64,000 bases of DNA from Eubacteriales bacterium (GCA_045652135.1 JAZRTS010000155.1:1765-65764); one strand, 5' to 3'. Shown: positions 9,170-41,550, counted from the stretch's first letter. The notes: generated by a model from the sequence alone, not told the origin. Numbers and translations are program-made.

Positions 9170-10282
9170 ATGGCAAGCTTATCACTTAAGCACATTTACA
9201 AAAGATATCCCGGCGGCGTTGAAGCTGTTTCCGACTTCTGTCTCGAAGTTAAGGATAAAGAATTTATTATTTTCGTTGGTCCTTCCGGTTGCGGTAAGTC
9301 AACGACTCTCCGTATGATCGCAGGTCTTGAAGAAATCACAGATGGTGAACTCTTCATCGGCGACAAGCTTGTAAACGACGTTGCTCCTAAGGACAGAGAC
9401 ATCGCAATGGTGTTCCAGAACTACGCTCTGTATCCTCATATGACTGTGTTTGAAAACATGGCATTCGGTCTTAAGCTCCGCAAGACACCCAAGGCTGAGA
9501 TCAAGCGCAGAGTTGAAGAAGCTGCACGTATCCTCGATATCGAACACTTGCTTGACAGACGTCCGAAGGCTCTCTCCGGCGGTCAGAAGCAGCGTGTTGC
9601 GCTCGGCCGTGCTATCGTTCGTAATCCTAAGGTCTTCCTTCTCGACGAACCGCTTTCAAACCTCGATGCTAAGCTCCGTGCTGCCATGCGTTCAGAGCTT
9701 ACAAAGCTCCACAAGAAGCTCGAAACAACGTTCGTATACGTTACGCACGACCAGGTAGAGGCTATGACAATGGCTACACGTATCGTTGTTATGAAGGATG
9801 GTAAGATCCAGCAGGTAGATACACCTCAAAATCTCTACGACAAGCCCAACAGAGTATTCGTTGCAGGCTTTATCGGTACACCTCAAATGAACTTTATCGA
9901 AGCTAACCTCACAAAGGAAGGCAGCGATGTTTACGTTGAATTCCAGGGTAACAAGATGAAGCTTCCCGCTGAAAAGGCAAACGCTCCCGAACTCAAGGAA
10001 TATATCGGCAAGGAAGTTATTGTCGGTATCAGACCTGAGTGTATCCACGATGAGCCTATGTATCTTTCACAGTATGCTGAATCAACAATTGATACATACG
10101 TAGAAGTTACAGAGCTTATGGGCGCTGAAATCTACCTCTATATCAAGACAGGTGAGCAGAACCTTATTGCACGTGTTTCCTCACGTTCACAGGCAAGAGC
10201 AGGTGACAATATCAAGGTTGCATTTGTCGTTTCCAGAATGCACATCTTCGATAAGGACACAGAGGCTTGCATTATCCACTGA
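9170..10282 (+). CDS. MsmX/MalK/UgpC-type sugar ABC transporter ATP-binding protein (orphan; no permease adjacent)
   Basis: Walker A GPSGCGKST, signature LSGGQKQRVALGRA, Walker B VFLLDEPLSNLD, C-terminal TOBE-like regulatory domain. AAAGGAG SD. Confidence 0.92.
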   Translation: MASLSLKHIYKRYPGGVEAVSDFCLEVKDKEFIIFVGPSGCGKSTTLRMIAGLEEITDGELFIGDKLVNDVAPKDRDIAMVFQNYALYPHMTVFENMAFGLKLRKTPKAEIKRRVEEAARILDIEHLLDRRPKALSGGQKQRVALGRAIVRNPKVFLLDEPLSNLDAKLRAAMRSELTKLHKKLETTFVYVTHDQVEAMTMATRIVVMKDGKIQQVDTPQNLYDKPNRVFVAGFIGTPQMNFIEANLTKEGSDVYVEFQGNKMKLPAEKANAPELKEYIGKEVIVGIRPECIHDEPMYLSQYAESTIDTYVEVTELMGAEIYLYIKTGEQNLIARVSSRSQARAGDNIKVAFVVSRMHIFDKDTEACIIH

Positions 10283-13528: not shown

Positions 13529-14434
13529 TTAATAAAGTAAATATATATTGTAGCCGTCACCTATTGGCTCAAAATATACAGTAAAATATTTTAAAGGGTG
13601 AGCACCGCCGTACATCATATACATATCATTAAATGTAAGGACTTCATCATGCAGACGATTTTTAAGCCATTCGCCGCTTAATTCTGCATCCGCATATTGC
13701 GGAACAAACCACGACGAATTATCGGGAGTAACTACAACACCGTCGTTGTATACGGTGATATGTTGCATACCCACGGTTGCACCGAGGGCGGCAAGGTCGT
13801 TTTGTATAGCTTCGACGTCAAGCGGATAATCGCAGGGACTTTTTACCGGGGGTGTCGTTTCCGCATCTGTTACGGGTGCTGTTGTTTCTGTAGGCTTCGT
13901 TGTTTCAACAGGCTTTGCTGTTGTTTCGATAGGCTTTGTTGTATCAACGGGTTTTGTAGTTTCAACGGGTTTCGACGTTGTTTCAATCGGTTTCGTTGTA
14001 TCTTTTGGTTTTACTGTTGTATCGTTCTGCTTCGATGTCGTTGTGCCGGGTGACGTTTCATCGGGGGAAGTTGTCATAGCATCGGTGACAGCTTCGGTGT
14101 CCTCTACAGGTTCGGATATATCGGGTATGTCCTCGCTCGGTGTTTCTCCCGCCGTTTCGTCGTTTGTATTATCTTCGCTTTCATTCGGTATATCTTCTAA
14201 TATATCCCCGTCGGTGTCGGTCGGTGTATCTTCGATCGGCGTGCCTGTATTCGTATCGATCTCTATATCGATTCCCGTACTGTATTCGGTATCATCATAG
14301 GTATCTGTCTGCTCGGTCTGATGCTCTGTGTGTATATCTTCGGTGTATTCGCTTTGATATGTGCCTTTAGGCTCACAAGAAATGCACATTACCATCGATA
14401 ATGCAAGAATTGTCAATAAAGCTCGTCTGAACAC
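13529..14434 (-). CDS. Hypothetical lipoprotein with acidic and Thr/Pro/Lys-rich repeat linker and a ~100-aa C-terminal globular domain
   Basis: Start re-assigned to the GTG at 14434 (AAGGAG SD 7 nt upstream, signal FRRALLTILALSMVMCISC). The extra 97 N-terminal residues of the track ORF (to 14725) lack SD or signal logic and overlap the divergent promoter. Confidence 0.75.
   Translation of the reverse strand: MFRRALLTILALSMVMCISCEPKGTYQSEYTEDIHTEHQTEQTDTYDDTEYSTGIDIEIDTNTGTPIEDTPTDTDGDILEDIPNESEDNTNDETAGETPSEDIPDISEPVEDTEAVTDAMTTSPDETSPGTTTSKQNDTTVKPKDTTKPIETTSKPVETTKPVDTTKPIETTAKPVETTKPTETTAPVTDAETTPPVKSPCDYPLDVEAIQNDLAALGATVGMQHITVYNDGVVVTPDNSSWFVPQYADAELSGEWLKNRLHDEVLTFNDMYMMYGGAHPLKYFTVYFEPIGDGYNIYLLY
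13880..14014 (-). repeat. In-frame tandem repeats encoding KP(I/V)(E/D)TT units (6-7 aa period, about 7 copies)
   Basis: Protein segment VKPKDTTKPIETTSKPVETTKPVDTTKPIETTAKPVETTKPTETT. Matching 18-21-bp periodicity is visible in the DNA. Confidence 0.65.
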
Positions 14435-14462
14435 GGTATCACTCCTTTTAAATTTATTGGTA

Positions 14463-14491
14463 TTGACAAAACTGATTGAATATGCTATTAT
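14463..14491 (+). promoter_or_regulatory. Promoter of the 14552 gene
   Basis: TTGACA (14463-14468), 17-nt spacer, TATTAT (14486-14491). Confidence 0.45.
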
Positions 14492-14551
14492 ATATATGTA
14501 AGGAGCGCATCCGGTAATGTATTTGACTCCTAGTTGTAAAGGAGATAGTTC

Positions 14552-15202
14552 ATGGAACATGTTGAGACTCAGAGAAAGGCCGTTTTTCCTATTGTGCTTG
14601 CTGTACTCCAAGTTGTTGTGGTACTGGTTCTGATATCTTTCAGTTTTATGACTGGTGGATATCAGAAGGGTTTTTTTGATTTGGATGATATTCTTTTTGA
14701 AGGTATTTCCTCGTTTGCCAATCAATCCGATTATGATATTGTCATTGCAGCAGGTCGCCGCCTTGCTTTCCTTTCCCTTTTGGTTTTTGGCAGTATTTTA
14801 CTGGTGATATTTTTGAAAAGCAAGGCCAGAAGCTCTTTGCCGTCGTCCATCAGATCCCGTATTGTGGCACAGATCCTTTCCAATGCAATATTTTTGTTCT
14901 TTGCTTTTCTCCTTGTTGTGTACGAATTCAGCGGTTTTACCCGGATTTTGCTGTACCCTGCGGTGCTTGTCTGCGCCGTGATCTATGTAATCGTTACCAC
15001 CAAATATTCTGTTCGTGCAGGCGCAACCGCATTGATTTTACAGGCTTTGGCTTTTCTGGCCGCGTTCTATATTGTGTGGCTGATATGTCCGCTTTTCGGC
15101 GCACTTATGGTAGTTCTCGGTGACATTTTCTCCTTCCTGCTGGTATTGCTGCTGTTGAGCGGAGGATCTTCCACCTTTGTGCGCATTATCATCCGCTTGT
15201 AA
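14552..15202 (+). CDS. Hypothetical polytopic membrane protein
   Basis: AAGGAG SD 7 nt upstream of the ATG. About 6 hydrophobic helices. No recognisable family. Confidence 0.7.
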   Translation: MEHVETQRKAVFPIVLAVLQVVVVLVLISFSFMTGGYQKGFFDLDDILFEGISSFANQSDYDIVIAAGRRLAFLSLLVFGSILLVIFLKSKARSSLPSSIRSRIVAQILSNAIFLFFAFLLVVYEFSGFTRILLYPAVLVCAVIYVIVTTKYSVRAGATALILQALAFLAAFYIVWLICPLFGALMVVLGDIFSFLLVLLLLSGGSSTFVRIIIRL

Positions 15203-16580: not shown

Positions 16581-16609
16581 TTGAACTTTCTGTTTCGGTA
16601 GTGTATAAT
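16581..16609 (+). promoter_or_regulatory. Promoter of the kinase/PqqD/peptidase/NTase cassette
   Basis: TTGAAC (16581-16586), 17-nt spacer, TATAAT (16604-16609). Confidence 0.55.
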
Positions 16610-16692
16610 TGTATACGGATATTTATATCAATTTCCAAAAGACATAAATAAAATTATTGAAAAATAAAAACTGATTAGGGAACTTTTGTTTA

Positions 16693-17412
16693 ATGCCAAA
16701 AATTATCTGTAAAATCGCCGATATAGTCACAGAAGTGCCTTCTTCGGGCGGTATGGAGCTGCGATGTGGGGATTATATTTATAACGGCGATGAATTGCCC
16801 GATATTATAATCGATGAGGGCAAATATCACCCTGAAAAATACGGGTGCAATTTTTCTGCTGATAATATAGCATATATGGAGTCTGCACGGCAATTTTATA
16901 CACAGCTTTTACATAGAGACGGTTTTTATTTACATGCTTCGGCTGTTGAGCTTGACGGACAAGCTTATCTTTTCTCCGGTAAAAGCGGTATCGGAAAATC
17001 AACACATACACGCCTGTGGCAGCAGTTTTTCGGTGACAGGGTTCATATCTTTAACGATGACAAGCCTGCACTCAGGTTTATCGACGGAAAATGGTATGCA
17101 TACGGCACTCCCTGGTGCGGAAAAGACGGTATCAATAAAAACGTAAAGGTGCCTCTTGCAGGAATATGTTTTTTAAAACAGTCGGTGCGTAACGAAATAC
17201 GTCGCATTTCTACCCTTGAAGCAATACCAAGGATAACGTCACAGACGATATACAAGTTCAGAGACACGGAACGGCTCGAACTTTTGCTCGGACATCTTGA
17301 CAAATTACTTACGATAGTTCCGATATATGAGCTTGAAAATAAGCCGGAAAAAGAAGCTGTGCTTTTAAGTTATAATACTATGCGGCGCGGTGCGGAGGAA
17401 AGCAATTTATGA
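16693..17412 (+). CDS. HPr-kinase-C-terminal-like P-loop kinase (HprK-related, peptide/protein-modification type)
   Basis: LHASAVELDGQAYLFSGKSGIGKSTHTRLW P-loop block characteristic of the Hpr_kinase_C fold. 239 aa, with no HPr-kinase N-terminal domain. Confidence 0.75.
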   Translation: MPKIICKIADIVTEVPSSGGMELRCGDYIYNGDELPDIIIDEGKYHPEKYGCNFSADNIAYMESARQFYTQLLHRDGFYLHASAVELDGQAYLFSGKSGIGKSTHTRLWQQFFGDRVHIFNDDKPALRFIDGKWYAYGTPWCGKDGINKNVKVPLAGICFLKQSVRNEIRRISTLEAIPRITSQTIYKFRDTERLELLLGHLDKLLTIVPIYELENKPEKEAVLLSYNTMRRGAEESNL

Positions 17413-17687
17413 AATTAAGTGAAAATTTTGTGTTGAAGCAGGTTGCAGGATCATACATAGTGCTTCCTATAGGTGGCTCAATAGTTGATTTTAACGGTAT
17501 GCTCACGCTTAACGAGTCGGGTGTTCTTCTGTGGAACACTCTCAAGCAAGGATGTGATATCGAAGGGCTTGTTGATGCGCTTACGACCGAATACAAGGTG
17601 TCGCGCGAAGTAGCGCGTGACGATATAAATGAATTTTTAACTAAACTGGCAAATGCCGGATGTATAGAAGGAGCGCTTGATGAATAA
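17409..17687 (+). CDS. PqqD-family protein (RiPP recognition element-type peptide chaperone)
   Basis: 92 aa. FVLKQVAGSYIVLP...LTLNESGVLLWNTLKQGCDIEGLVDALTTEYKVSREVARDDINEFLTKLANAG matches the PqqD pattern. ATGA overlap with the kinase gene. Confidence 0.85.
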   Translation: MKLSENFVLKQVAGSYIVLPIGGSIVDFNGMLTLNESGVLLWNTLKQGCDIEGLVDALTTEYKVSREVARDDINEFLTKLANAGCIEGALDE

Positions 17688-18108
17688 GGTACTGTTAATA
17701 TTGCTGGCCGCGACGCTTATCCTTGCCGGTGTATCTTGTGTAAGGGCGGATGATGCGAAGGGAGATTCTTCGGAATCGACAGATAAAGCTGTAACTTGTA
17801 TAGATACGGATGATACCGGCGAAAAAGAGGAAGATCGTGCAACTGAAGACGAAACCCAAAACTTTACTGCAGAGTCTGATTCCGCTGACTCTGTTGTAAC
17901 GAAAACCCCGGATGAAATGCCTAACATTACTTATGAAGATTATATTAACATGACGGCGCAGCAACAGACTGACTTTATAAAAAGCTTTTCATCCGTTGGA
18001 AAATTTACCGAATGGTATAATGCCGCTAAATCAAAGTATGATATAGACAACGATAAAATATATATTGGTGAGGAAAGTATCGATTTAGGGGATATTTTCA
18101 ACAAGTGA
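17677..18108 (+). CDS. Secreted acidic protein with a conserved 59-aa C-terminal module (candidate substrate of the cassette)
   Basis: Signal MMNKVLLILLAATLILAGVSCVRA|DD, then a D/E/T-rich linker. The C-terminal TYEDYINM...EWYNAAKSKYD...IDLGDIFNK is shared with the 24637-25224 product. The start lies 11 nt inside the PqqD gene. Confidence 0.75.
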   Translation: MMNKVLLILLAATLILAGVSCVRADDAKGDSSESTDKAVTCIDTDDTGEKEEDRATEDETQNFTAESDSADSVVTKTPDEMPNITYEDYINMTAQQQTDFIKSFSSVGKFTEWYNAAKSKYDIDNDKIYIGEESIDLGDIFNK

Positions 18109-18143
18109 AATGTATTACTTGGCAGATGAAAGGAGATATAACT

Positions 18144-18644
18144 GTGAAAAAAAATATTCCATCGCCTGCCAAGTCACGTTTTATATTTCTTGACGATTTG
18201 ATACCTGTGATTCAAGAGCAGATAGATGCAGGACGCAACGTAAAGTTTTCACCGCGTGGAGTAAGTATGCTTCCTATGCTGAGGCAGGGAATTGACAGTG
18301 TTGAGCTGTCAGGTGCGCCCGAGCGGCTGGAAAAATACGATATTGTGCTTTACCGCAGAGACAGTGGGCAGTACGTGCTTCACAGAATAGTCGGTATAAA
18401 TGGGACGTATACGTGCATAGGCGATGCCCAATTTGATAAGGAATTCGGAATCAGACGCGATCAGATAATTGCAGTTGTGACATCGTTTTACAGAGGAGGG
18501 CGACACCGTTCCGTTAAAAATGTTTTATACCGTTTGTACTGCCGCATATGGCATTACAGCAGGGGAATAAGACGTTTTATAAAGAACTTGGCCGGATGGC
18601 TTAAACGACACGTGAGCGCATTATTTTCTCATTCGGAGAAGTAA
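18144..18644 (+). CDS. S24/S26-family serine peptidase, apparently soluble, with an ER/SipW-type Ser-His motif pair
   Basis: SPRGVSMLPML (nucleophile Ser box) and YVLHRIVGINGTYTCIGD (His where bacterial SPase I and LexA have Lys). Start taken at GTG 18144 (AAAGGAG SD, 8-nt spacing). An alternative GTGA-overlap start exists at 18105. Confidence 0.7.
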   Translation: MKKNIPSPAKSRFIFLDDLIPVIQEQIDAGRNVKFSPRGVSMLPMLRQGIDSVELSGAPERLEKYDIVLYRRDSGQYVLHRIVGINGTYTCIGDAQFDKEFGIRRDQIIAVVTSFYRGGRHRSVKNVLYRLYCRIWHYSRGIRRFIKNLAGWLKRHVSALFSHSEK

Positions 18645-18647
18645 TTT

Positions 18648-19829
18648 ATGGATATTATAAAACAAGGTATTTTAATACTTATAAAAAGTGCCGTTTTGGG
18701 GAAAGCGTTAAAACTTCCCGACGGTTTTTCACTTGATGAGGCATTTACTGCCATTGCGGAGCACCGTATTATTTCTATGGCTTATACGGGCGCTGTTAAT
18801 TGCGGAATTCCTCTTTCATTGCCCATAATGCAAAAAATGCTTTTTTACAGTGCTAAGCTGATGATGATATCGGAAAAGCAGATGCAGGCTGTGGAAAAAG
18901 TTAGCAAGATCTTTTCTGAAAATGAAATAGATCATATGCCTGTCAAAGGCTGTATTATGAAAACGCGTTATCCCACACCTGCGCTTCGATATATGGGAGA
19001 TGCGGACATTTTGATACGCAAAGAACAATATGATAAAATTTCTCCCATAATGGAAAAGCTCGGTTTTTCCATTGAAGAAGAATGTGACCATGTTTTTGTG
19101 TGGAAATCGCAGGAGCTTTTGCTTGAGCTTCACGTGAAGCTGATACCGTCAAGTGAGCATCTGCTTTATGAGTATCTCGGCGACGGTTGGAGATTAGCGA
19201 AAGAAAAGAACGGCTATTGCTATGCAATGACTAAAGAAGATGAATTTATATTTTCATTTATTCATTTTGTAAAGCATTACCGTGACAGCGGCATAGGATG
19301 CCGTCACGTGGTTGACCTATGGATAATGGACAGACTTTTCGATGATGACAGCCGCGCGTATATCAAAAGAGAACTCACAAAGATGCGCCTTGACATTTTT
19401 TATGAAAATATGGTGCGCGTTATAAAAAGTTGGTTCGAAGACGGTGAAAGTGACATCATTACCGAACATATAACACAGTTTATATTTTCCTGCGGCAACT
19501 GGGGGCAAGCCAAGACGCAAGCAATGGCGCGGCAAATGCTCACGGTAGATACGGATGATCCAAAGAAAATGAGCAGAAAATTACTGTTAAAGGACATATT
19601 TCCACCGCGTGAGAGGATAAAGGGAGAATATCCGATACTCGAAAAGGCACGGTTTATGTTGCCTTTTGTGTGGATATGGCGTATAATCAAAACAGTGATA
19701 TTTAAACGTGACAGCGTTCGCCGTTCGGTCAAAAGGGCATCACTGCTGAATGAACAGGCAGTAAACGATTTCAGACAAAATCTCAAAATCGTTGGTCTTG
19801 AACCGAATACGAGGGTGGATCGAAAATAA
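18648..19829 (+). CDS. PF14907-like (NTP_transf_5) uncharacterised nucleotidyltransferase family protein
   Basis: 393 aa. IDHMPVKGCIMKTRYPTPALRYMGDADILIRKEQYDKISPIMEKLGF...LLELHVKL matches the family pattern. Starts 4 nt after the peptidase stop. Confidence 0.75.
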   Translation: MDIIKQGILILIKSAVLGKALKLPDGFSLDEAFTAIAEHRIISMAYTGAVNCGIPLSLPIMQKMLFYSAKLMMISEKQMQAVEKVSKIFSENEIDHMPVKGCIMKTRYPTPALRYMGDADILIRKEQYDKISPIMEKLGFSIEEECDHVFVWKSQELLLELHVKLIPSSEHLLYEYLGDGWRLAKEKNGYCYAMTKEDEFIFSFIHFVKHYRDSGIGCRHVVDLWIMDRLFDDDSRAYIKRELTKMRLDIFYENMVRVIKSWFEDGESDIITEHITQFIFSCGNWGQAKTQAMARQMLTVDTDDPKKMSRKLLLKDIFPPRERIKGEYPILEKARFMLPFVWIWRIIKTVIFKRDSVRRSVKRASLLNEQAVNDFRQNLKIVGLEPNTRVDRK

Positions 19830-19870
19830 AAAAAAGGCTGACTCAATTTATGAGCCAGCCATATTTTTTT
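19827..19870. terminator. Bidirectional terminator between convergent genes
   Basis: A-run, GGCTGACTCA-attta-TGAGCCAGCC (9/10 bp), T-run. Confidence 0.75.
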
Positions 19871-19872
19871 GA

Positions 19873-21165
19873 TCAAGAAGCTTTAATTGCGATATCGGTC
19901 ATAACTGTATTCGCTCTGTATGACCATACACCGAAGTAACCGTCTTTGTTGACCACTGCAGAGCCTGAATATACGATTCTGTTGTTATGATCTCGTACAA
20001 CAGCCTGATCGTATTCCTCGCTCAAGTGTATACTGCAGATCATATATTTGTTGCCGTCGGATGAGTACATATAGTATTTTATAACATCGCCGGCATCAAC
20101 AACAACGAGCTTGTGAGCTGTGGAGCAATCCTCGGGAAGTGTAACGAATGACGGTCTGTAATTCCAAGAATATCTGTCGCCGCCTCTGCCAAAGAACAAT
20201 GATGCTTGCTTTGTTCCGTTAAAGGCAAGATAAATTCCGCCGGGATCTCTTGCAGTCTTACGCTTGTCTGTGATTCTGACACCGACGAAGGAAGCATCTG
20301 TAGGCTCTGTTGAGTCTGCTATCTCACTTGTTGATGTGAGAGTCAAATGGAATTCATACTGGCTGTATTCTTTTCCGGGTTCATACTTCTGGCTGAGAGC
20401 AAGTGTGCCTTCCTTTGAGGGCTGTTCAAATATAACTGTGGAATTTTCTGCAATGACAGCCTTGTCATCTGACGGAGCTGTGTAAATGTCGAGCATTGCG
20501 GGGTTAGGCATCGTGGCAGGGTTAGGTCTGTAAGCGCGGACAAAATTGCCTATCGGCTCTGTGAAGGGCTGGGGGCCTTTTGTACCGTTGATTCTTTCAT
20601 TTGATCCGCCGTCATATCTTTTGTTGGTGCCTGCACACATAAATACGTGCGCGGGGTTACCTTTGGCATCGGGATTTACAAATACGATGTCACCCGCTTT
20701 GATGTTTCTTGTGCTTTCGATAAGCTCAAAATCGTGTTCTTCAAAATATCTGTAAAGGTTCAAGCCGTGGCGGTAATCCTGATCGATAAATCCTGCACGG
20801 AAAAGTATCCACGATACCATTCTGTCACATGCAACGATTCTTTCCTTGGGGTTTATTGCTTCTTTTGCATTGAGTGTACGCCAGTTGATAGCGGGGTTTA
20901 TTTCCGCATCTCCGTATATGAAGTTGTTGTCACGTATGAAGTCAGCAACAACCTTACCCTCTGTCATAAGTCTTTCAACAAGCTCCTCGTATGTAGGCGG
21001 AGTCCACTCATCAACAACGGGCGGTTCAGCTTCTGTAACAACATCTGTTGTTTCTGCATCTGTTGCTTGTTCGCTGCCGTTTGTTGTATCATCATTGCTT
21101 CCTCCGCAGGAGAGCATGGATAATGCGCAAATTAAACAAAGCGCACGAAGTAAAAATTTTTTCAT
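19873..21165 (-). CDS. Paralog family member 1: lipoprotein, papain-fold (Cys-His-Asp) domain + ConA/LamG-like beta-sandwich
   Basis: Signal ...CALSMLSCGG. Blocks RIVACDRMVSWILFRAGF, IKAGDIVFV, AHVFMCAGTNKRYDGGS. C-terminal domain ends DGYFGVWSYRANTVMTDIAIKAS. Confidence 0.8.
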   Translation of the reverse strand: MKKFLLRALCLICALSMLSCGGSNDDTTNGSEQATDAETTDVVTEAEPPVVDEWTPPTYEELVERLMTEGKVVADFIRDNNFIYGDAEINPAINWRTLNAKEAINPKERIVACDRMVSWILFRAGFIDQDYRHGLNLYRYFEEHDFELIESTRNIKAGDIVFVNPDAKGNPAHVFMCAGTNKRYDGGSNERINGTKGPQPFTEPIGNFVRAYRPNPATMPNPAMLDIYTAPSDDKAVIAENSTVIFEQPSKEGTLALSQKYEPGKEYSQYEFHLTLTSTSEIADSTEPTDASFVGVRITDKRKTARDPGGIYLAFNGTKQASLFFGRGGDRYSWNYRPSFVTLPEDCSTAHKLVVVDAGDVIKYYMYSSDGNKYMICSIHLSEEYDQAVVRDHNNRIVYSGSAVVNKDGYFGVWSYRANTVMTDIAIKAS

Positions 21166-21324: not shown

Positions 21325-22611
21325 TTAAGAAGCTTTGAGTGCAATATCGGTTATATTTGTGTTTGCTTTGTATGACCATACACCGAAATAACCCTCTTGG
21401 TTTATCGTTGTAGAGCCTGAATATACGATCTTACCGCTATGGTCACGGGCTACTGCCTGATTGTATTCCTCGCTGATGTGTATAGTGCAAATGAGGTATT
21501 CTGTGCCGTCTTCGAGATACATATAGTACTTGATAACATCACCTGTGTCAACAACGGCTATCTTGTGCGCTGTTGTAAATGTTTCGGGCAGAGTGATAAC
21601 GGAAGCAGTGTCATACCAACGGTGTCTGTTGTCCTGCTGTCCGAAGAAGAGACCTGCCTTGTTCGTGCCGTTGAGTGAAAGGAAGATTCCGCCGGGCTCT
21701 CTTGCGTTTTTGCGCTTCTCAGTCATTCTTACACCTATGTACGATGCTTCGCTTATCTCCGTTGAACCTGCGTTTTCACTTGTTGATGTAAGTGAAAGGT
21801 GAAGCTCATACTGGCTGTATTCTTTTCCGGGATCGCAAAGAGGATTGAGGGAAAGTGTGCCTTCTTTTTTATCCTGCTCATAAATCACGGTAGAATTACC
21901 GCTTACGGTTGCAACGTCGTCTGCAGGGACGTCATATATCTTCAGCATAGACGGATTTGGCATTTTTTCAGGACTCGGTCTGTAAGCGCGGACAAAATTG
22001 TTTATCGGCTCTGTGAAAGGCTGAGGACCTTTTGAACCGTTGATTCTTTCGTTTGAACCGCCGTCATATCTCTTATTAGGGCCGGCGCACATAAATACGT
22101 GCAAGGGGTTGCCGTTTGCATCGGGGTTTACGAATACTATATCTCCTGCCTTGATAGATCTTGTGTTTTCAACACGCTCAAAGCCGTGTGTATCGAAATA
22201 TTCATAAAGGTCTATGCCGTGGCGGTAATCCTGATCGATAAATCCTGCGCGGAAAAGTATCCAGGAAACGAGTCTGTCGCAAGCAACGATCCTCTCATTG
22301 GGGTCTATTGCTTCGTTTGCGTTGAGTGTGCGCCAGTTGATTGCAGGGTTTATCTGCGCATCGCCGTATATGAATTTGTTGTCGCGTACAAAATCCGCAA
22401 CGATCTTGCCTTCTGCCATGAGAATATCAACAAGCTCCTCGTATGTAGGGGGAGTCCAGTTGTCGACAACAGGTACATCTGCTTCTGTTGTCGGTGCTGT
22501 TGTTTCCGCCGATGTATCTGACGGTGCTGATGTGTCTGCGTTGTTGCCTGAGCAAGAGAACATTGACAGAGCACATATCAAACAAAGTGTACGTAACAAT
22601 AATTTTTTCAT
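21325..22611 (-). CDS. Paralog family member 2: lipoprotein, papain-fold domain + ConA/LamG-like beta-sandwich
   Basis: Collinear with member 1 throughout and highly similar to it (RIVACDRLVSWILFRAGF, LHVFMCAGPNKRYDGGS, EGYFGVWSYKANTNITDIALKAS). Confidence 0.8.
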   Translation of the reverse strand: MKKLLLRTLCLICALSMFSCSGNNADTSAPSDTSAETTAPTTEADVPVVDNWTPPTYEELVDILMAEGKIVADFVRDNKFIYGDAQINPAINWRTLNANEAIDPNERIVACDRLVSWILFRAGFIDQDYRHGIDLYEYFDTHGFERVENTRSIKAGDIVFVNPDANGNPLHVFMCAGPNKRYDGGSNERINGSKGPQPFTEPINNFVRAYRPSPEKMPNPSMLKIYDVPADDVATVSGNSTVIYEQDKKEGTLSLNPLCDPGKEYSQYELHLSLTSTSENAGSTEISEASYIGVRMTEKRKNAREPGGIFLSLNGTNKAGLFFGQQDNRHRWYDTASVITLPETFTTAHKIAVVDTGDVIKYYMYLEDGTEYLICTIHISEEYNQAVARDHSGKIVYSGSTTINQEGYFGVWSYKANTNITDIALKAS

Positions 22612-22901: not shown

Positions 22902-24347
22902 TTAGGTTGCTTTTTTAATTGAGATGTTTGTTTGCGAAGTGTTGACATAATATTCCCAGGTGCTGAAATATCCCACCTGCTCGTATGTTCCTCTGCCTGA
23001 ATAAATAAACTTATTATTGTGGTCACGCACCGAGATGACATCGTATTCGGTGTTGATATTTATACTGCATATCAGATATTCTGCACCTGCTGATGTGTAC
23101 ATAAAATATTTTATCGTATTACCAGCATCGACAACAACTATCTTGTGAAGTGATGCTAAAGATTCGGGAAGTGCGATCTTTGCAAGAGGCTTGTACCAAA
23201 GCATACCTTCGCCGTGGTTTTCTTCCGAACAGCCTATACCTGTGTAAAGATATGCGTACGGTTCGTTACGGAATCCGAGCCAAAGACCGCCGTATTCTGT
23301 AGGTGAGTGTCCTGCCTTGGGAAGACGCGCGCCGACATACAGGCAGTTTCCTGCGTTCATCGAATCTGCTGTTGCGGAAACGTTCAAATGGAATTCATAC
23401 TGTGAATTAAAAGGATTATATCTGTAGTTCGCCGCAACATTTCCGTTGCTGTTTGCGGTGGTGTAAACTGTTGTTGTTGAAGCGGCAGGACGTGCGATAT
23501 TTGCTGTAGGTGTATTGTATATTTCCTTCAAAGAGGATTTGGGTAAGCCTGCGGGGTTGGGACGCCAAGCGTATGTAAAGCTTGAAATTCCTTCACGGAA
23601 CGGCTCTGTTGTTCCGTTAACGTAGGAATAAGCGCCTGTTCTCTGTATTCTTTCGATGGAGCCGTGGTCATATCTGAGGTTTGTACCTGCGCAAATGAAC
23701 TGATGCTCGCCGTTGAGTACGAGAACTATATCGCCTCTGCGTACATCGTTTACGTTTGTTATTTTTTCAAACTTGAATCTTTCGTAGTCAGATTCGCTGA
23801 ATCCGCCTCTGTAGAATCGCTGATCTGTATATCCTGCACGGTGGTATGCCCAGCTTACAAGGCGGTTACATGCAGATGCTCTTTCGCCGTCGATCGTTTC
23901 GTTGATGTTGAGATTCAGCCAGTTATATGCGGGATTGAGCTGTGCATCGCCGTATATAAAATTGTTATCGTCTGTGAATTTAACTATCTTTGCTGCTTCT
24001 TCGATGATTTTTTCTACAAGCTGGCTGTATGTGGGAGCGTTTTCGTCGGTGGGTACTTCGCAATGCTCACCGTAATAATTACGCAGTGCAATTATGTCAG
24101 ATCTTGTGATAGAGCCGTCACCGTTTATATCCACTTTTGCATCATAGGGGAAAAGTGCGGGCTTACGTATGTATTTCATAACACGTACGGCATCTTTTCC
24201 GTTAACGATACCGTCACGGTTAACGTCACAGTCAGATACCATAACAGCGGCAGACGTTCCGAAAAGATTCGGGAGTGATACCGCACCGACTATCATAAGC
24301 GCTGACAGACATATGCCGATGACCTTGAAAAGTTTGCTGTTTTTCAT
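22902..24347 (-). CDS. Paralog family member 3: signal peptide + type-I dockerin + papain-fold domain + beta-sandwich
   Basis: Dockerin Ca-binding repeats DVNRDGIVNGKD and DINGDGSITRSD (about 24063-24236). Blocks ASACNRLVSWAYHRAGY, HQFICAGTNLRYDHGS, VGYFSTWEYYVNTSQTNISIK. Confidence 0.82.
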   Translation of the reverse strand: MKNSKLFKVIGICLSALMIVGAVSLPNLFGTSAAVMVSDCDVNRDGIVNGKDAVRVMKYIRKPALFPYDAKVDINGDGSITRSDIIALRNYYGEHCEVPTDENAPTYSQLVEKIIEEAAKIVKFTDDNNFIYGDAQLNPAYNWLNLNINETIDGERASACNRLVSWAYHRAGYTDQRFYRGGFSESDYERFKFEKITNVNDVRRGDIVLVLNGEHQFICAGTNLRYDHGSIERIQRTGAYSYVNGTTEPFREGISSFTYAWRPNPAGLPKSSLKEIYNTPTANIARPAASTTTVYTTANSNGNVAANYRYNPFNSQYEFHLNVSATADSMNAGNCLYVGARLPKAGHSPTEYGGLWLGFRNEPYAYLYTGIGCSEENHGEGMLWYKPLAKIALPESLASLHKIVVVDAGNTIKYFMYTSAGAEYLICSININTEYDVISVRDHNNKFIYSGRGTYEQVGYFSTWEYYVNTSQTNISIKKAT

Positions 24348-24636: not shown

Positions 24637-25224
24637 TTATTTACCGAAAATGTCACCGAGGTCGATGGTGTCATCGCCTATGTCTACATTTCCGTTATTC
24701 TTGTCATATTCTGCCTTTGCCGCATTGTACCATTCTATAAATTTACTGAGTGAAGGGAAATTTTTGATGAATTCCGTTTGTTCATTGGGAGACATATTGA
24801 TGTAGTCCTTGTAAGTGTACTCGGAAGGATCAAATTTTTCAGGTTCGGTTTCGGGCGCGGTTGTATCTTCGGGTGCTGTTTCGGGCGGTTCTACTTCAAT
24901 TACGGGATCATCGAGTATTTCGCACGTCTGACCGTAATATGAATACACTTGAGCAATGTCATTGTTATCAATAATTCCGTCACCGTTGACATCGGCTTTT
25001 TCGGGAAAGTAATAATCGTCGGTGAGAATATACTTCATTATGCGTATGACATCTTTGCCGTTTATGATACCGTCACGCGTCACATCACATAATGATATCG
25101 GATCTTCATTTGGTGGCTCAATTTCATCCCACGTTGCGAAAACGCTCGGAAGTAATGCCGCGCCGATCGTGATTAAAGCGGAGAAGCATATAATGACAGA
25201 CTTGAAAAAAACATATTTTTTCAT
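24637..25224 (-). CDS. Signal peptide + type-I dockerin + Pro/Glu/Thr linker + the conserved 59-aa C-terminal module (no catalytic domain)
   Basis: Dockerin DVTRDGIINGKD / DVNGDGIIDNND (about 24931-25092). C-terminal TYKDYINMSPNEQTEFIKNFPSLSKFIEWYNAAKAEYDKNNGNVDIGDDTIDLGDIFGK aligns without gaps to the end of the 17677-18108 product. Confidence 0.8.
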   Translation of the reverse strand: MKKYVFFKSVIICFSALITIGAALLPSVFATWDEIEPPNEDPISLCDVTRDGIINGKDVIRIMKYILTDDYYFPEKADVNGDGIIDNNDIAQVYSYYGQTCEILDDPVIEVEPPETAPEDTTAPETEPEKFDPSEYTYKDYINMSPNEQTEFIKNFPSLSKFIEWYNAAKAEYDKNNGNVDIGDDTIDLGDIFGK

Positions 25225-26708: not shown

Positions 26709-28208
26709 TTATTTTTTAGCACACTGTATGGATATATTGGACTGGGTTGAATTTGAAAGATGAGTCCATACACCGAAATAACCCGTGTGTCCGATCTCTG
26801 TAAGACCTGCATAAATGAATTTGCCGGAGTTGTCACGAATACAAATTGTATCATAATCAGGGGATACCTTGATACTGCATATTAGGTAAGTATCTCCCGG
26901 GTTATGCGTCACCATATAGTATTTGATGACGTCACCCGTATCTACGACCATGATCTTATGCTCTTGCGTTAGCGGCTCCGGTACACGTGTTGAAGCAAGC
27001 GGCTCGTACCAAGCGTTTCCGAAACCGTCATTTCCTGATCCTCTCTGACCCTTGGAACAGCCTGTGCCTGTGTAGAAGTATACGTAACCGTCATCACGCA
27101 GAGCTATCCAGATACCGCCTTTGTTTGTGGGGTTATGGTTGGGATAAGGCAAACGAACGCCGACGTATGTCGAGCTTGACGGACTGCGGTCGCTTGTTGA
27201 AGGCGAAGATGAGATGTTCAAATGCAATTCGTAGTTTGCGTTGTAGGGATTGTAAGCAAAGTTGAACTGTCTTGAGCCTGAACCGTTAGCTGCTGTGTAA
27301 ACAGTATCGGTGTTCGGTGCGGGACGTGCTATGTTAGCATCGGGAGTTTTATAAATATTTGCTACCGATGTTGCGGGAAGTCCTTCGGGATTGGGACGCC
27401 ATGCGTATGAGAAGTTGCGTATCGATTCTCTGAACGGCTCGGTTGTATTTTCAACGTAAGCGTATGCGCCTATACGCTGAATACGCTCAACGCTTCCGTG
27501 GTCATATCTGAGGTTGGGGCCTGCGCAGATGAACTGGTGCAGAGTGTTGTTTACAAGCACTATATCGCCTGCTCTTACATCGTTTACGTTTGTTATCTTT
27601 GTGAACTTGTATCTTGCGTAATCTGCATCGGTAAATCCGCCGTAGTAGAATCTCTGATCAGAATAGCCCGCACGGTGGAATACCCAGCTTACAAGACGGT
27701 CGCAGGCGGAACGTGTGCCTGTTACAAAGGACTTATCAAGACCTTCGTCATAATTAAGATTGAGCCAGTTGTATGCAGGGTTTATTACCGCATCGCCGTA
27801 GTTGAAGCCGTAATTGTTAGTGAACTCCGTTACCTTTTTTGCTTCCTCGAGTATCTTTGCAACGAGCTGATCGTATGTAGGCTTCGGCTTTTCCACTTCA
27901 ATTACACGGTCGGGAAGTATTTCGCATGTCTGACCGTAGAAGGAACGTATTGCCACAACGTCCGCAGAGTTGATAGTTCCGTCTCCGTTTACATCTGCCT
28001 TGTCGGGGAAATAGTAATCGTCTGTGTGGATGTATTTCATTACACGTATCATATCTTTTCCGTTTATAATACCGTCACGGTTTACGTCACAGTCGGTAAC
28101 AACAACGGCTGCGGATATGCCGAATAAATTCGGGAGCGATATAGCACCCAGAATAAACACAACGGAAAGACAGATTCCGAGTGTCCTATAAAGTCTGCTG
28201 TTCTTCAT
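26709..28208 (-). CDS. Paralog family member 5: signal peptide + type-I dockerin + papain-fold domain + beta-sandwich
   Basis: Start moved to the ATG at 28208 (MKNSRLYRTLG; AAAGGAG SD). Dockerin DVNRDGIINGKD / DVNGDGTINSAD (about 27933-28094). Blocks RSACDRLVSWVFHRAGY, HQFICAGPNLRYDHGS, TGYFGVWTHLSNSTQSNISIQ. Confidence 0.82.
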   Translation of the reverse strand: MKNSRLYRTLGICLSVVFILGAISLPNLFGISAAVVVTDCDVNRDGIINGKDMIRVMKYIHTDDYYFPDKADVNGDGTINSADVVAIRSFYGQTCEILPDRVIEVEKPKPTYDQLVAKILEEAKKVTEFTNNYGFNYGDAVINPAYNWLNLNYDEGLDKSFVTGTRSACDRLVSWVFHRAGYSDQRFYYGGFTDADYARYKFTKITNVNDVRAGDIVLVNNTLHQFICAGPNLRYDHGSVERIQRIGAYAYVENTTEPFRESIRNFSYAWRPNPEGLPATSVANIYKTPDANIARPAPNTDTVYTAANGSGSRQFNFAYNPYNANYELHLNISSSPSTSDRSPSSSTYVGVRLPYPNHNPTNKGGIWIALRDDGYVYFYTGTGCSKGQRGSGNDGFGNAWYEPLASTRVPEPLTQEHKIMVVDTGDVIKYYMVTHNPGDTYLICSIKVSPDYDTICIRDNSGKFIYAGLTEIGHTGYFGVWTHLSNSTQSNISIQCAKK

Positions 28209-28485
28209 AAGCAGTATCTCCTTTCGCACGGGCGGTATTTTCCGCCGTATTTTGACGCTTAATTTTACACTATAAAAGAAATTTTGTCAACAATGCAAAA
28301 TAATTAGAAATATAACAAACGGATTAATATATATATAAAGTATGAACTTTGGAGTGCTTTACGGTGGTTTTGTTGTGATAAATGCACAAAATTTTAAACG
28401 GTGATTTTGTGTATTTGCTGAATTTCATATTTTTTTTATTGCGGTAAAACGCTGTGGTTGATACTGCCTTGTTCACATAAAACTA

Positions 28486-40609: not shown

Positions 40610-40821
40610 AACCGACCCTTTAAAATTAATTCTCTTTATATTATACCTATTCAAAAGAATAAAATCAATATATAATTCTTTAATTTTCAGTACAATAAAT
40701 TCACTTTGGGACGAGCAAAAATATGAAATTTCGATATTAAAATCAATAAAGACACACTATGTTAATAATTATGTGGTATAATACAATTTACAAATTTATA
40801 GGAACAAAAGGAAATCTGAAA

Positions 40822-41550
40822 ATGCTCAGACTTGAAAATATATCTTGGAGTACACCTGACGGTGTTAAAATACTTGACGGACTTTCTTTATCCGTCAAGG
40901 ACAATGAACTGACTGTTATCACAGGCCCTAACGGCGGTGGAAAGACAACGCTTGCAAAAATAATTGCAGGAATTGAGAAACCAACATCCGGCAGAATTTA
41001 TCTTGATGACATTGATATAACAGACAAAGACGTTACAGAAAGGGCGAAAATGGGTGTAAGCTTTGCATTCCAACAGCCCGTGAGATTCAAGGGAATAACT
41101 GTAAGACGTCTTTTGGAGCTTGCGCACGGCGGTAAAATGCCCGAGGATGAAATTTGTAACGTTTTAAGCCGCGTGGGACTTTGCGCGCGTGAGTATACGG
41201 AAAGAGAAGTGAATGCCACACTTTCCGGCGGTGAGATAAAGAGAATAGAAATTGCCTCTGTTCTTGCGCGTCACACAAAGCTGTCTATATTTGACGAACC
41301 GGAGGCGGGAATTGACCTTTGGAGCTTTACAAATCTTATCAAGGCGTTTGAACAGATACGTCAGACGCTTGAAGGCACGCTTATGATAATATCCCATCAG
41401 GAGAGAATACTGAATATTGCCGACACCATTGTTGTTGTAGGCGGAGGTACTGTCCAGAGAATGGGAAGCCCTGCAGAGCTTAATGATGAGCTTTTCGGCG
41501 GCAGATTCACTATTGCATCTTGCAGAAAACAGGAGGCGCTGTTTCAATGA
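40822..41550 (+). CDS. sufC: SufC-like Fe-S cluster assembly ABC ATPase
   Basis: Walker A GPNGGGKTT, LSGGEIKR, Walker B LSIFDEPEAGID, H-loop ISHQ. Start moved to the ATG at 40822. Confidence 0.8.
   Translation: MLRLENISWSTPDGVKILDGLSLSVKDNELTVITGPNGGGKTTLAKIIAGIEKPTSGRIYLDDIDITDKDVTERAKMGVSFAFQQPVRFKGITVRRLLELAHGGKMPEDEICNVLSRVGLCAREYTEREVNATLSGGEIKRIEIASVLARHTKLSIFDEPEAGIDLWSFTNLIKAFEQIRQTLEGTLMIISHQERILNIADTIVVVGGGTVQRMGSPAELNDELFGGRFTIASCRKQEALFQ

Follow-up and report, generated by a model that had tools for sequence, protein, structure and literature searches.

The family of linear polyphosphorylated peptides (LPPs), a kind of peptide that is made on the ribosome and modified after translation (RiPP), was defined by Popov et al. 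(Nat Commun 2026, PMC13381572) on the basis of 126 sequences, most of them from Bacilli, with the cluster lppA-K-B-S-D-N of Paenibacillus alginolyticus as the type; the final structure and function of LPPs are still unknown. In this type system, the kinase LppK adds up to four phosphates to Ser3 of the core, and the peptidase LppS (S29, H68, and D93) cuts the leader only when the RiPP recognition element (RRE) LppB is present, of which residues N33, Y60, D70, and F74 fix a Pro kink and hydrogen-bond the Tyr of the leader motif YxxP (PMC13381572). The precursors carry the sequence YxxPxVLxHQxIxFETxxS, with lengths of up to 200 amino acids reported, and the loci are associated with cps genes (PMC13381572). 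In the sequence similarity network (SSN) of that study, LPPs were restricted to cluster 1 (Bacilli), whereas Clostridial signal peptidase I proteins (SpIs) of clusters 4 and 9, which lie beside "other RREs", were listed in a supplementary table and not analysed further (PMC13381572). Here, we describe an operon of five open reading frames (ORFs) at positions 16581 to 19870 of a 64-kb stretch of DNA from a Eubacteriales bacterium (64,000 nt, GCA_045652135.1, JAZRTS010000155.1:1765-65764; called the window below), in which the genes K, D, X, P, and N follow one another in this order, all on the + strand. We consider it likely that this operon supplies the enzymes that mature an LPP-type RiPP, namely a linear, phosphorylated, and probably further decorated peptide, in a variant widespread among gut Clostridia. 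The system extends the newly known LPP machinery and is not the founder of a new kind, and the closest relatives of its proteins indicate that the window is a member of the Clostridial sister group that Popov et al. listed but left aside. An earlier note on this DNA had read the operon as a peptide modification-plus-proteolysis system, a general reading that is sound, and had added that no characterised example of the architecture was known, which the characterisation of the homologous lppAKBSDN cluster in 2026 (PMC13381572) overturns.

Similar enzymes are found in lasso-peptide clusters. In clusters of the paeninodin type, the HprK-like kinase PadeK is described as phosphorylating a serine (Zhu et al. 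2016, as cited in PMC7533575), and in the pseudomycoidin cluster, which has the kinase PsmK, attachment of one or two hexoses to the phosphoserine needs the enzyme PsmN, which is inactive when its DxD motif is mutated (Zyubko et al. 2019, PMC6993621). As a reference, we used the orthologous lpp locus of Paenibacillus (L090), which carries an adjacent lasso cluster. The window and its relatives share with the LPP systems an ScmC-family kinase, a discrete PqqD-type RRE, a SipW-like Ser-His peptidase, and a PF14907 enzyme, alike in order and strand, together with the absence of a lasso cyclase or B2 protease, a Tyr-type YxxP leader in the precursors of the clade, and cps neighbours in some relatives. 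They differ from the LPP systems in that a gene for a secreted protein (X) separates the RRE gene from that of the peptidase, a giant secreted protein is usually encoded upstream, and either N or an ABC exporter is present but rarely both (the window itself has no precursor gene and no exporter gene), and in that the third catalytic position of the peptidase is Glu106 in P as opposed to Asp93 in LppS. With the paeninodin and pseudomycoidin lasso clusters, they share an HprK-like Ser kinase, a PF14907 enzyme (for hexose on the phosphate), a B1-type RRE, and a [Y/W]xxP leader, the layout of the clade leader being nearly that of the lasso precursor PbaA. In contrast to those clusters, the window has no macrolactam synthetase and no transglutaminase-like B2 protease, K belongs to ScmC whereas the lasso kinase belongs to PF07475, and the clade leader has Tyr where the lasso leader has Trp. 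The kinship of K and N to lasso tailoring enzymes had been noted before, and both do match their lasso-cluster partners.

Gene K (16693–17412) encodes 239 amino acids, of which residues 93–109 are LFSGKSGIGKSTHTRLW and include the P-loop GKSGIGKST (residues 96–104, nt 16978–17004). This P-loop, as GxSGxGKST, and the sequence NDDK (residues 121–124) were invariant in 23 homologues; a larger homologue search scored 7,960 matches among 8,000 candidates, which made up more than 7,900 clusters at 90% identity. The precomputed Pfam assignment of K is PF27840 (ScmC), whereas the NCBIfam matches were all below threshold (ScmC was best, at E = 6e-8, and HprK_rel_A gave 0.009). The AlphaFold2 (AF2) model of K, with a mean confidence (pLDDT) of 92.7, had HprK/P and PEPCK as its top fold matches, in agreement with the HPr-kinase-like P-loop described in the earlier note. 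When a profile of the kinase alignment was run on PDB sequences, nothing beyond generic P-loop similarity to ABC transporters came up, and therefore the fold search was needed to see the kinship to HprK. In pairwise comparison, K was 30% identical to the LppK orthologue of L090 over 145 amino acids (E = 2e-14) and matched the lasso kinase of the same locus less strongly (E = 3e-8). LppK of L090 is itself a PF27840 ScmC protein, whereas the adjacent lasso kinase is PF07475 (Hpr_kinase_C). The DD of NDDK in K aligns with the DD of the lasso kinase, a predicted metal site at which mutation inactivates PsmK (PMC6993621). By analogy, we infer that K is an LppK-like peptide serine kinase of the ScmC family with the HprK fold.

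Gene D (17409–17687, 92 amino acids), which overlaps K by ATGA, encodes a PqqD protein (PF05402, E = 1.6e-17), as had been called before. Among solved structures, D matched the lasso RRE TbiB1 best (E = 4e-7) and LppB (9x8z_B) and PbaB1 (9x90_B) weakly; in pairwise comparison with LppB, the E value was 5e-7. D is 47% identical to an Anaerocolumna "other RRE" in the dataset of Popov et al. and 37% identical to a second RRE there. The residues N35, Y62, D72, and F76 of D align with LppB N33, Y60, D70, and F74, respectively. On this alignment, D is a discrete PqqD-type RRE of the LppB/B1 kind that has kept the YxxP-binding residues.

An HprK-like P-loop protein beside a PqqD-family protein also occurs in the SynChlorMet (ScmC TIGR04249, ScmD TIGR04248) and HPr-rel-A (TIGR04352, TIGR04353) systems. 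Membership in the former was rejected: K scored 32.4 bits with TIGR04249 where the cut-off is 125, and no ScmE/ScmF radical-SAM/SPASM protein was evident among the Pfam-annotated neighbours in related loci. Likewise, HPr-rel-A was rejected at 15.1 bits for HprK_rel_A (cut-off 200) and 16 bits for PqqD_rel_X (cut-off 35). More generally, there was no radical-SAM protein among neighbours with precomputed Pfam assignments in the related loci; the window itself was not scanned with a radical-SAM profile.

Gene P ends at 18644 and starts at 18105 (GTG) or at 18126 (ATG, the start in public gene calls), giving 179 or 172 amino acids. The Pfam match to Peptidase_S24 that had been expected was not obtained, as P had no Pfam match at all; the NCBIfam matches were weak and below the cut-offs (TIGR02228, archaeal-type signal peptidase I, at 8e-4, and SipW at 5.5e-3), and a profile of P found no match among PDB sequences. 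In 26 homologues, Ser47 (nt 18264–18266), His86 (18381–18383), Asp100 (18423–18425), and Glu106 (18441–18443) were invariant, as were the motifs PRGxSMxPM, LHR, and GDxQ with the downstream Glu. We take these three motifs to be the box B, D, and E pattern of the signal peptidases of the endoplasmic reticulum and archaeal type (S26B). The AF2 model of P (pLDDT 83.5) has an S24/S26 fold, with best matches to SpsB, LexA, and UmuD, and also to SipA, so that the soluble Ser-His S24/S26 peptidase proposed in the earlier note is upheld by the invariant Ser and His and by the fold. P resembles SipW/Sec11 (MEROPS S26B) in its GxSMxP, HR, and GDx motifs, its Ser-His pair, and its S24/S26 β-barrel. It departs from these signal peptidases in having no membrane anchor, the model showing only an amphipathic N-terminal helix and a tail of basic C-terminal helices, and in lying in a RiPP operon, where its predicted substrate is a leader held by the RRE and not a Sec signal peptide. 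The N-terminal helix (residues 22–34) precedes the catalytic Ser in the model, like the LppB-docking helix of LppS. P was 25% identical to LppS over 111 amino acids (E = 2e-12), with the Ser-to-His spacing of 39 residues kept and with S47 aligned to S29, H86 to H68, D100 to D87, and the invariant E106 to the catalytic D93. It was also 38% identical to a Ruminococcus SpI of SSN cluster 9 and 33% identical to a cluster-4 protein. These analogies suggest that P is a soluble SipW/Sec11-type Ser-His peptidase that serves as an LppS-like leader peptidase.

Gene N (18648–19829, 393 amino acids) starts 3 nt past the P stop codon and encodes a protein of PF14907 (NTP_transf_5, E = 1.3e-35), which bears out the nucleotidyltransferase assignment made before. 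Its DxD motif (D118/D120, nt 18999–19007) aligns with the motif whose mutation inactivates PsmN. Compared with the proteins of L090, N matched the lasso-cluster N at E = 5e-12 and LppN at E = 0.003. N is thus assigned as a PF14907 enzyme of the nucleotidyltransferase fold, LppN/PsmN-like in its sequence. In one related locus (L001, 1486–3837), a fusion protein of 783 amino acids combines an NTP_transf_5 domain with a GT1 glycosyltransferase and is encoded in a cps locus directly 5′ of the cassette. This fusion hints that PF14907 enzymes may cooperate with sugar transfer.

The occurrence of related cassettes was evaluated by a pattern scan of one genome per species, in which 236 genomes carried a relative. 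All 80 of the 80 loci fetched were from metagenome-assembled genomes of Clostridia (Oscillospiraceae, Faecousia, Eubacteriales, and some Lachnospiraceae), mostly from animal gut. Ninety loci (83 non-redundant) were analysed with our own pipeline of ORF calling and hidden Markov models (HMMs), components being counted over the 70 loci with enough downstream sequence and precursors over the 75 with upstream sequence. The common layout of the clade was K-D-X-P followed by N or by an ABC exporter of 550–615 amino acids, and rarely by both: D was present in 65 loci, X in 61, P in 48, N in 18, and the exporter in 14. The exact order K-D-X-P-N was found in 12 loci, and in three more that also had the exporter. 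The arrangement K-D-X-P-(N or ABC exporter) recurred in dozens of species, so that the five-gene order, of which the earlier note had proposed a conservation test, is conserved. In 89 related loci, phmmer searches of the ORFs up to 8 kb from K found neither a lasso cyclase nor a B2 protease. HMMs built only from the Clostridial loci matched LppK (4e-21), LppS (5.5e-21), and LppB (8e-8), and the HMM for N matched the lasso-cluster N at 5e-28 and LppN at 5e-16. Some of the related loci adjoin cps genes.

An ORF of 35–55 codons lies directly 5′ of K in 56 of the 75 loci. The N terminus of its product is strongly conserved, as MK(K)xYxKPExExIxFxxEExI, and the tail is variable, acidic, and often ends in Trp or Phe; the peptide of locus L010, as an example, is MNMKEYIKPEAELIVFESEEITAPIGFEHGDKSNTLSDEWF. 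This conservation identifies the ORF as a precursor-peptide family with a YxxP leader. The clade leader has the form Px6[F/L]x[S/T], with six residues from Pro to Phe, compared to nine in LPP. It looks like a Tyr version of the paeninodin-type lasso leader, paired with what appear to be LPP-type enzymes. In at least 50 loci, a gene for a giant secreted protein of 900 to more than 2,600 amino acids, with a conserved C-terminal domain of about 230 amino acids, ends about 150 nt 5′ of the precursor or kinase gene (for example, L004 1218–4082, L005 2641–9855, and L008 7082–9850); no such protein was found in the Paenibacillus lpp locus.

Gene X runs from 17677 (TTG) or 17680 (ATG, the start in public gene calls) to 18108, giving 143 or 142 amino acids and an overlap with D of 11 or 8 nt. 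Neither Pfam nor NCBIfam contained a match for X, as the earlier note had foreseen for its 143-amino acid product. In X, an N-terminal signal peptide is followed by an acidic linker and then by a conserved module at the C terminus (about 65 amino acids, nt ~17899–18105) with the consensus LTYEEYLAMSAEEQQAFFESFESIEAFFAWYNAAKAEYEKENPSIEIGGDGSIDLGDIIGG, which the module HMM detected at E = 4.5e-25. In its homologues, which are proteins of 150–415 amino acids whose genes lie, in 61 of 70 loci, between those of the RRE and the peptidase, a lipobox is clear in many, and the linker is of low complexity, acidic or Thr/Pro-rich, and very variable in length. No counterpart of X was found in the Paenibacillus lpp locus (L090). 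Among 1.84 billion proteins, the module was present in 571 representative clusters, mostly of small proteins with the module at the C terminus. Its N-terminal half (TYEEY...EQ...F...F..WY) is also repeated 4–8 times in tandem in larger proteins, with lengths reaching 3,421 amino acids (P0314–P0316, P0325, P0335, and others). K, the RRE, and X occurred without a recognisable SpI-like peptidase in the fetched region in 13 of 70 loci (for example, L016, L018, L022, L024, L042, L048, and L049), and therefore the linkage of X to the kinase and RRE is tighter than that of the leader peptidase.

The window contains a paralogue of X (24637–25224, − strand, 195 amino acids), with a signal peptide, a type I dockerin, and then the X C-terminal module. 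Because the same module follows a dockerin in this paralogue, an extracellular role of the module is suggested. Around the paralogue are genes for paralogous secreted proteins of 430–506 amino acids (19873–21165, 21325–22611, 22902–24347, and 26709–28229, − strand, convergent with the cassette), two of which have dockerins; no other Pfam match was found in any of them. The dockerin proteins suggest a cellulosome-type organism. We infer that X is a secreted accessory protein specific to the clade, probably of the lipoprotein type, and not a substrate.

The nearest relative of the window is locus L004, which is 85% identical in nucleotide sequence across the cassette and both flanks. In L004, a gene for a giant protein of 954 amino acids occupies exactly the position at which the window has nothing but the promoter region, and like the window L004 has no precursor gene. 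The ratio of non-synonymous to synonymous substitution rates (dN/dS) between the two was 0.13–0.27 for all five genes, indicating purifying selection. Because all five genes appear to be under purifying selection relative to L004, the operon of the window is probably functional, and because the window has no precursor, the substrate must then be encoded elsewhere in the genome. For Bacilli LPP systems, RREs or precursors located outside the cluster are on record (PMC13381572).

The observed homology, folds, catalytic residues, synteny, and precursor family suggest the following pathway, in which the chemical steps, the substrate supplied in trans, and the role of X are proposals. A small acidic precursor, encoded elsewhere in the genome, would be bound at its YxxP leader by D, and K would phosphorylate a core serine once or several times. 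P would dock on the RRE–leader complex by its N-terminal helix and then remove the leader, and N would add a further group onto the phosphate, which is a hexose in the case of the lasso homologue PsmN. X would be a secreted accessory component peculiar to the clade.

Of the components by which LPP systems are recognised, the window has an LppK-type HprK-like kinase (PF27840 in both, supported by the pairwise E value and the fold), a soluble SipW-like Ser/His/acid peptidase beside a discrete RRE, and a PF14907 NTP transferase in the core of the operon; it has neither a precursor with a YxxP...Px9Fx[T/A] leader nor an MsbA-like exporter. Several results weigh against assignment of the operon to LPP-type maturation. 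No precursor gene was found in the 64-kb window by regular expression, by the precursor HMM of the clade (--max, to E = 10), or by tblastn with LppA and PbaA, and no MsbA-type exporter was found there, the only candidates being generic ABC ATPase domains at 9176–9835 and 40819–41490. The identity to characterised proteins is only 25–30%, the relatives of the RRE and peptidase are "other RREs" and SSN clusters 4/9, outside the LPP groups, and by comparison with PDB sequences, D is no closer to LppB than to PbaB1. The clade leader has Px6[F/L]x[S/T] in place of the LPP-defining Px9Fx[T/A], and the Clostridial precursor HMM matches the paeninodin-like lasso precursor PbaA (L090 14444–14578, MKKEWLKPELEVLEV...) at E = 8.5e-4 and not LppA. 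To these can be added that no activity of LppN was detected in the heterologous host of the published work (PMC13381572) and that X is kept in more loci than the peptidase (61 and 48 of 70, respectively). Membership in the LPP family as published is therefore not proven, because the leader motif and the exporter are lacking and D is no more than a candidate member of the LPP RRE clade.

Other readings of the operon were considered against these data. That the enzymes serve a different RiPP encoded elsewhere, such as a paeninodin-like lasso peptide, and not a linear LPP-type product is suggested by the clade leader layout MKKEYxKPELEV..., which is closer to the paeninodin-like MKKEWLKPELEV than to LppA, by N being closer to the lasso-cluster N than to LppN, and by the lasso protein TbiB1 being the best solved match of D. 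However, tblastn of the L090 cyclase C and B2 protease against the window gave only E values above 2, in agreement with the earlier note that the window has no lasso cyclase, B2 protease, or exporter; neither a cyclase nor a B2 protease lay near K in the related loci, K matches LppK better than it does the lasso kinase, and the leader peptidase is of the LppS type that defines the linear family. We regard service to a lasso peptide as very improbable. It is somewhat less far-fetched, although still unlikely, that the operon is an orphan remnant from which the precursor and the giant upstream protein were deleted, leaving the remaining genes idle or decaying. Neither the precursor nor the giant protein, which L004 has at the same position, is present in the window, and about one-quarter of related loci are likewise without a precursor; but all five ORFs are intact with the catalytic residues kept, the low dN/dS values were obtained against a relative that is itself precursor-less, and a promoter-like site and a terminator belong to the operon itself.

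The earlier note had proposed that X itself is the substrate, and in this reading the embedded protein would be phosphorylated, nucleotidylated, or glycosylated and then cut by P. X is the sole non-enzyme gene of an operon in a window that has no small precursor, it is retained in the cassette more often than the peptidase, and LPP precursors can reach the 200 amino acids mentioned above (PMC13381572). Five loci (L025 3251–3787, L035 4067–4588, L075 1249–1926, L076 1366–1923, and L077 1310–1873) also have extra membrane-anchored Pro/Thr-rich proteins, of which the last ~15 residues are like the C terminus of the local precursor (...EGDMGVEDSIFG compared to ...DGDLGLSDAPSDW, and ...GGTGRPVIP compared to ...GGSGRPTPPGQ), and these tail-matching proteins may be displayed or alternative substrates. 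The resemblance came only from these five loci with atypical proteins, however: for canonical X, the similarity of its C-terminal tail to the precursor tail of the same locus was not significant, as 117 of 2000 permutations reached the observed mean. The separate YxxP precursor of the 56 loci accompanies X in most loci, and X does not substitute for it. Furthermore, X has a Sec/lipoprotein signal and no YxxP motif, whereas neither a signal peptide nor a membrane segment is present in K, D, P, or N; the residues for YxxP binding are retained in the RRE; and the X module is also present on the dockerin protein outside the cassette. On these grounds, the proposal that X is the substrate is not supported and is probably wrong, and we give it little credence. 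LPP-type maturation of a peptide encoded elsewhere remains the reading that we prefer.

The sequence around the genes agrees in part with what had been described. The ORFs, their overlaps, and their coordinates confirm five tightly coupled genes. A promoter-like site (TTGAAC 16581–16586, 17 nt, TATAAT 16604–16609, + strand; 10/12 matches in the scan) is indeed present 84 nt 5′ of the K start, in the intergenic gap and downstream of another terminator-like hairpin. Such sites were not enriched in the region, nine being observed compared to 11.0 expected from shuffles, and therefore the promoter call depends on position. At the other end, a terminator-like hairpin (19836–19860, within flanking A and T runs at 19836–19870) is shared with a convergent gene. 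Its − strand form is perfect, with ten pairs counting G-U, whereas a single A-C mismatch interrupts the + strand form, after which a T run follows. Because of this mismatch, the bidirectional terminator of the earlier note is plausible but asymmetric. As functional elements, the promoter-like site and the hairpin are plausible rather than proven. Upstream of the operon are an ORF for a secreted-looking, Thr/Pro/Glu-rich protein of 398 amino acids (13529–14725, − strand), of which the long TTG-started N terminus is probably over-called, and, overlapping its start, an ORF for a multi-pass membrane protein of 216 amino acids (14552–15202, + strand); neither had a Pfam match.

A broader view of the clade is that its LPP-type machinery may be part of a larger conserved cell-surface module, with the order giant secreted protein, precursor, kinase, RRE, X, peptidase, and N or exporter. 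In this module, a phospho(glyco)peptide would act together with X and the giant protein outside the cell, or be joined to them, and in operons that have no precursor, such as that of the window, X-type proteins, the module of which is also found on the nearby dockerin protein, could have become the target instead. We hold this view to be speculative and improbable, but if it were true, a cassette with an X-type target would be a protein-directed relative of a RiPP pathway.

With 236 species-level genomes, nearly all from gut or rumen Clostridia, the clade of the window is far larger than the 126-sequence LPP set. It includes an annotation gap, as the peptidase family of P has no Pfam model and X belongs to no family. 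The clade adds components that are absent from the type system, namely the secreted X and the giant surface protein, together with a leader intermediate between those of lasso peptides and LPPs. These features provide handles on how RREs discriminate between leaders and on the use of substrates encoded elsewhere, as well as on the function of the phosphopeptide, for which cell surface, capsule, and cellulosome biology are candidates.

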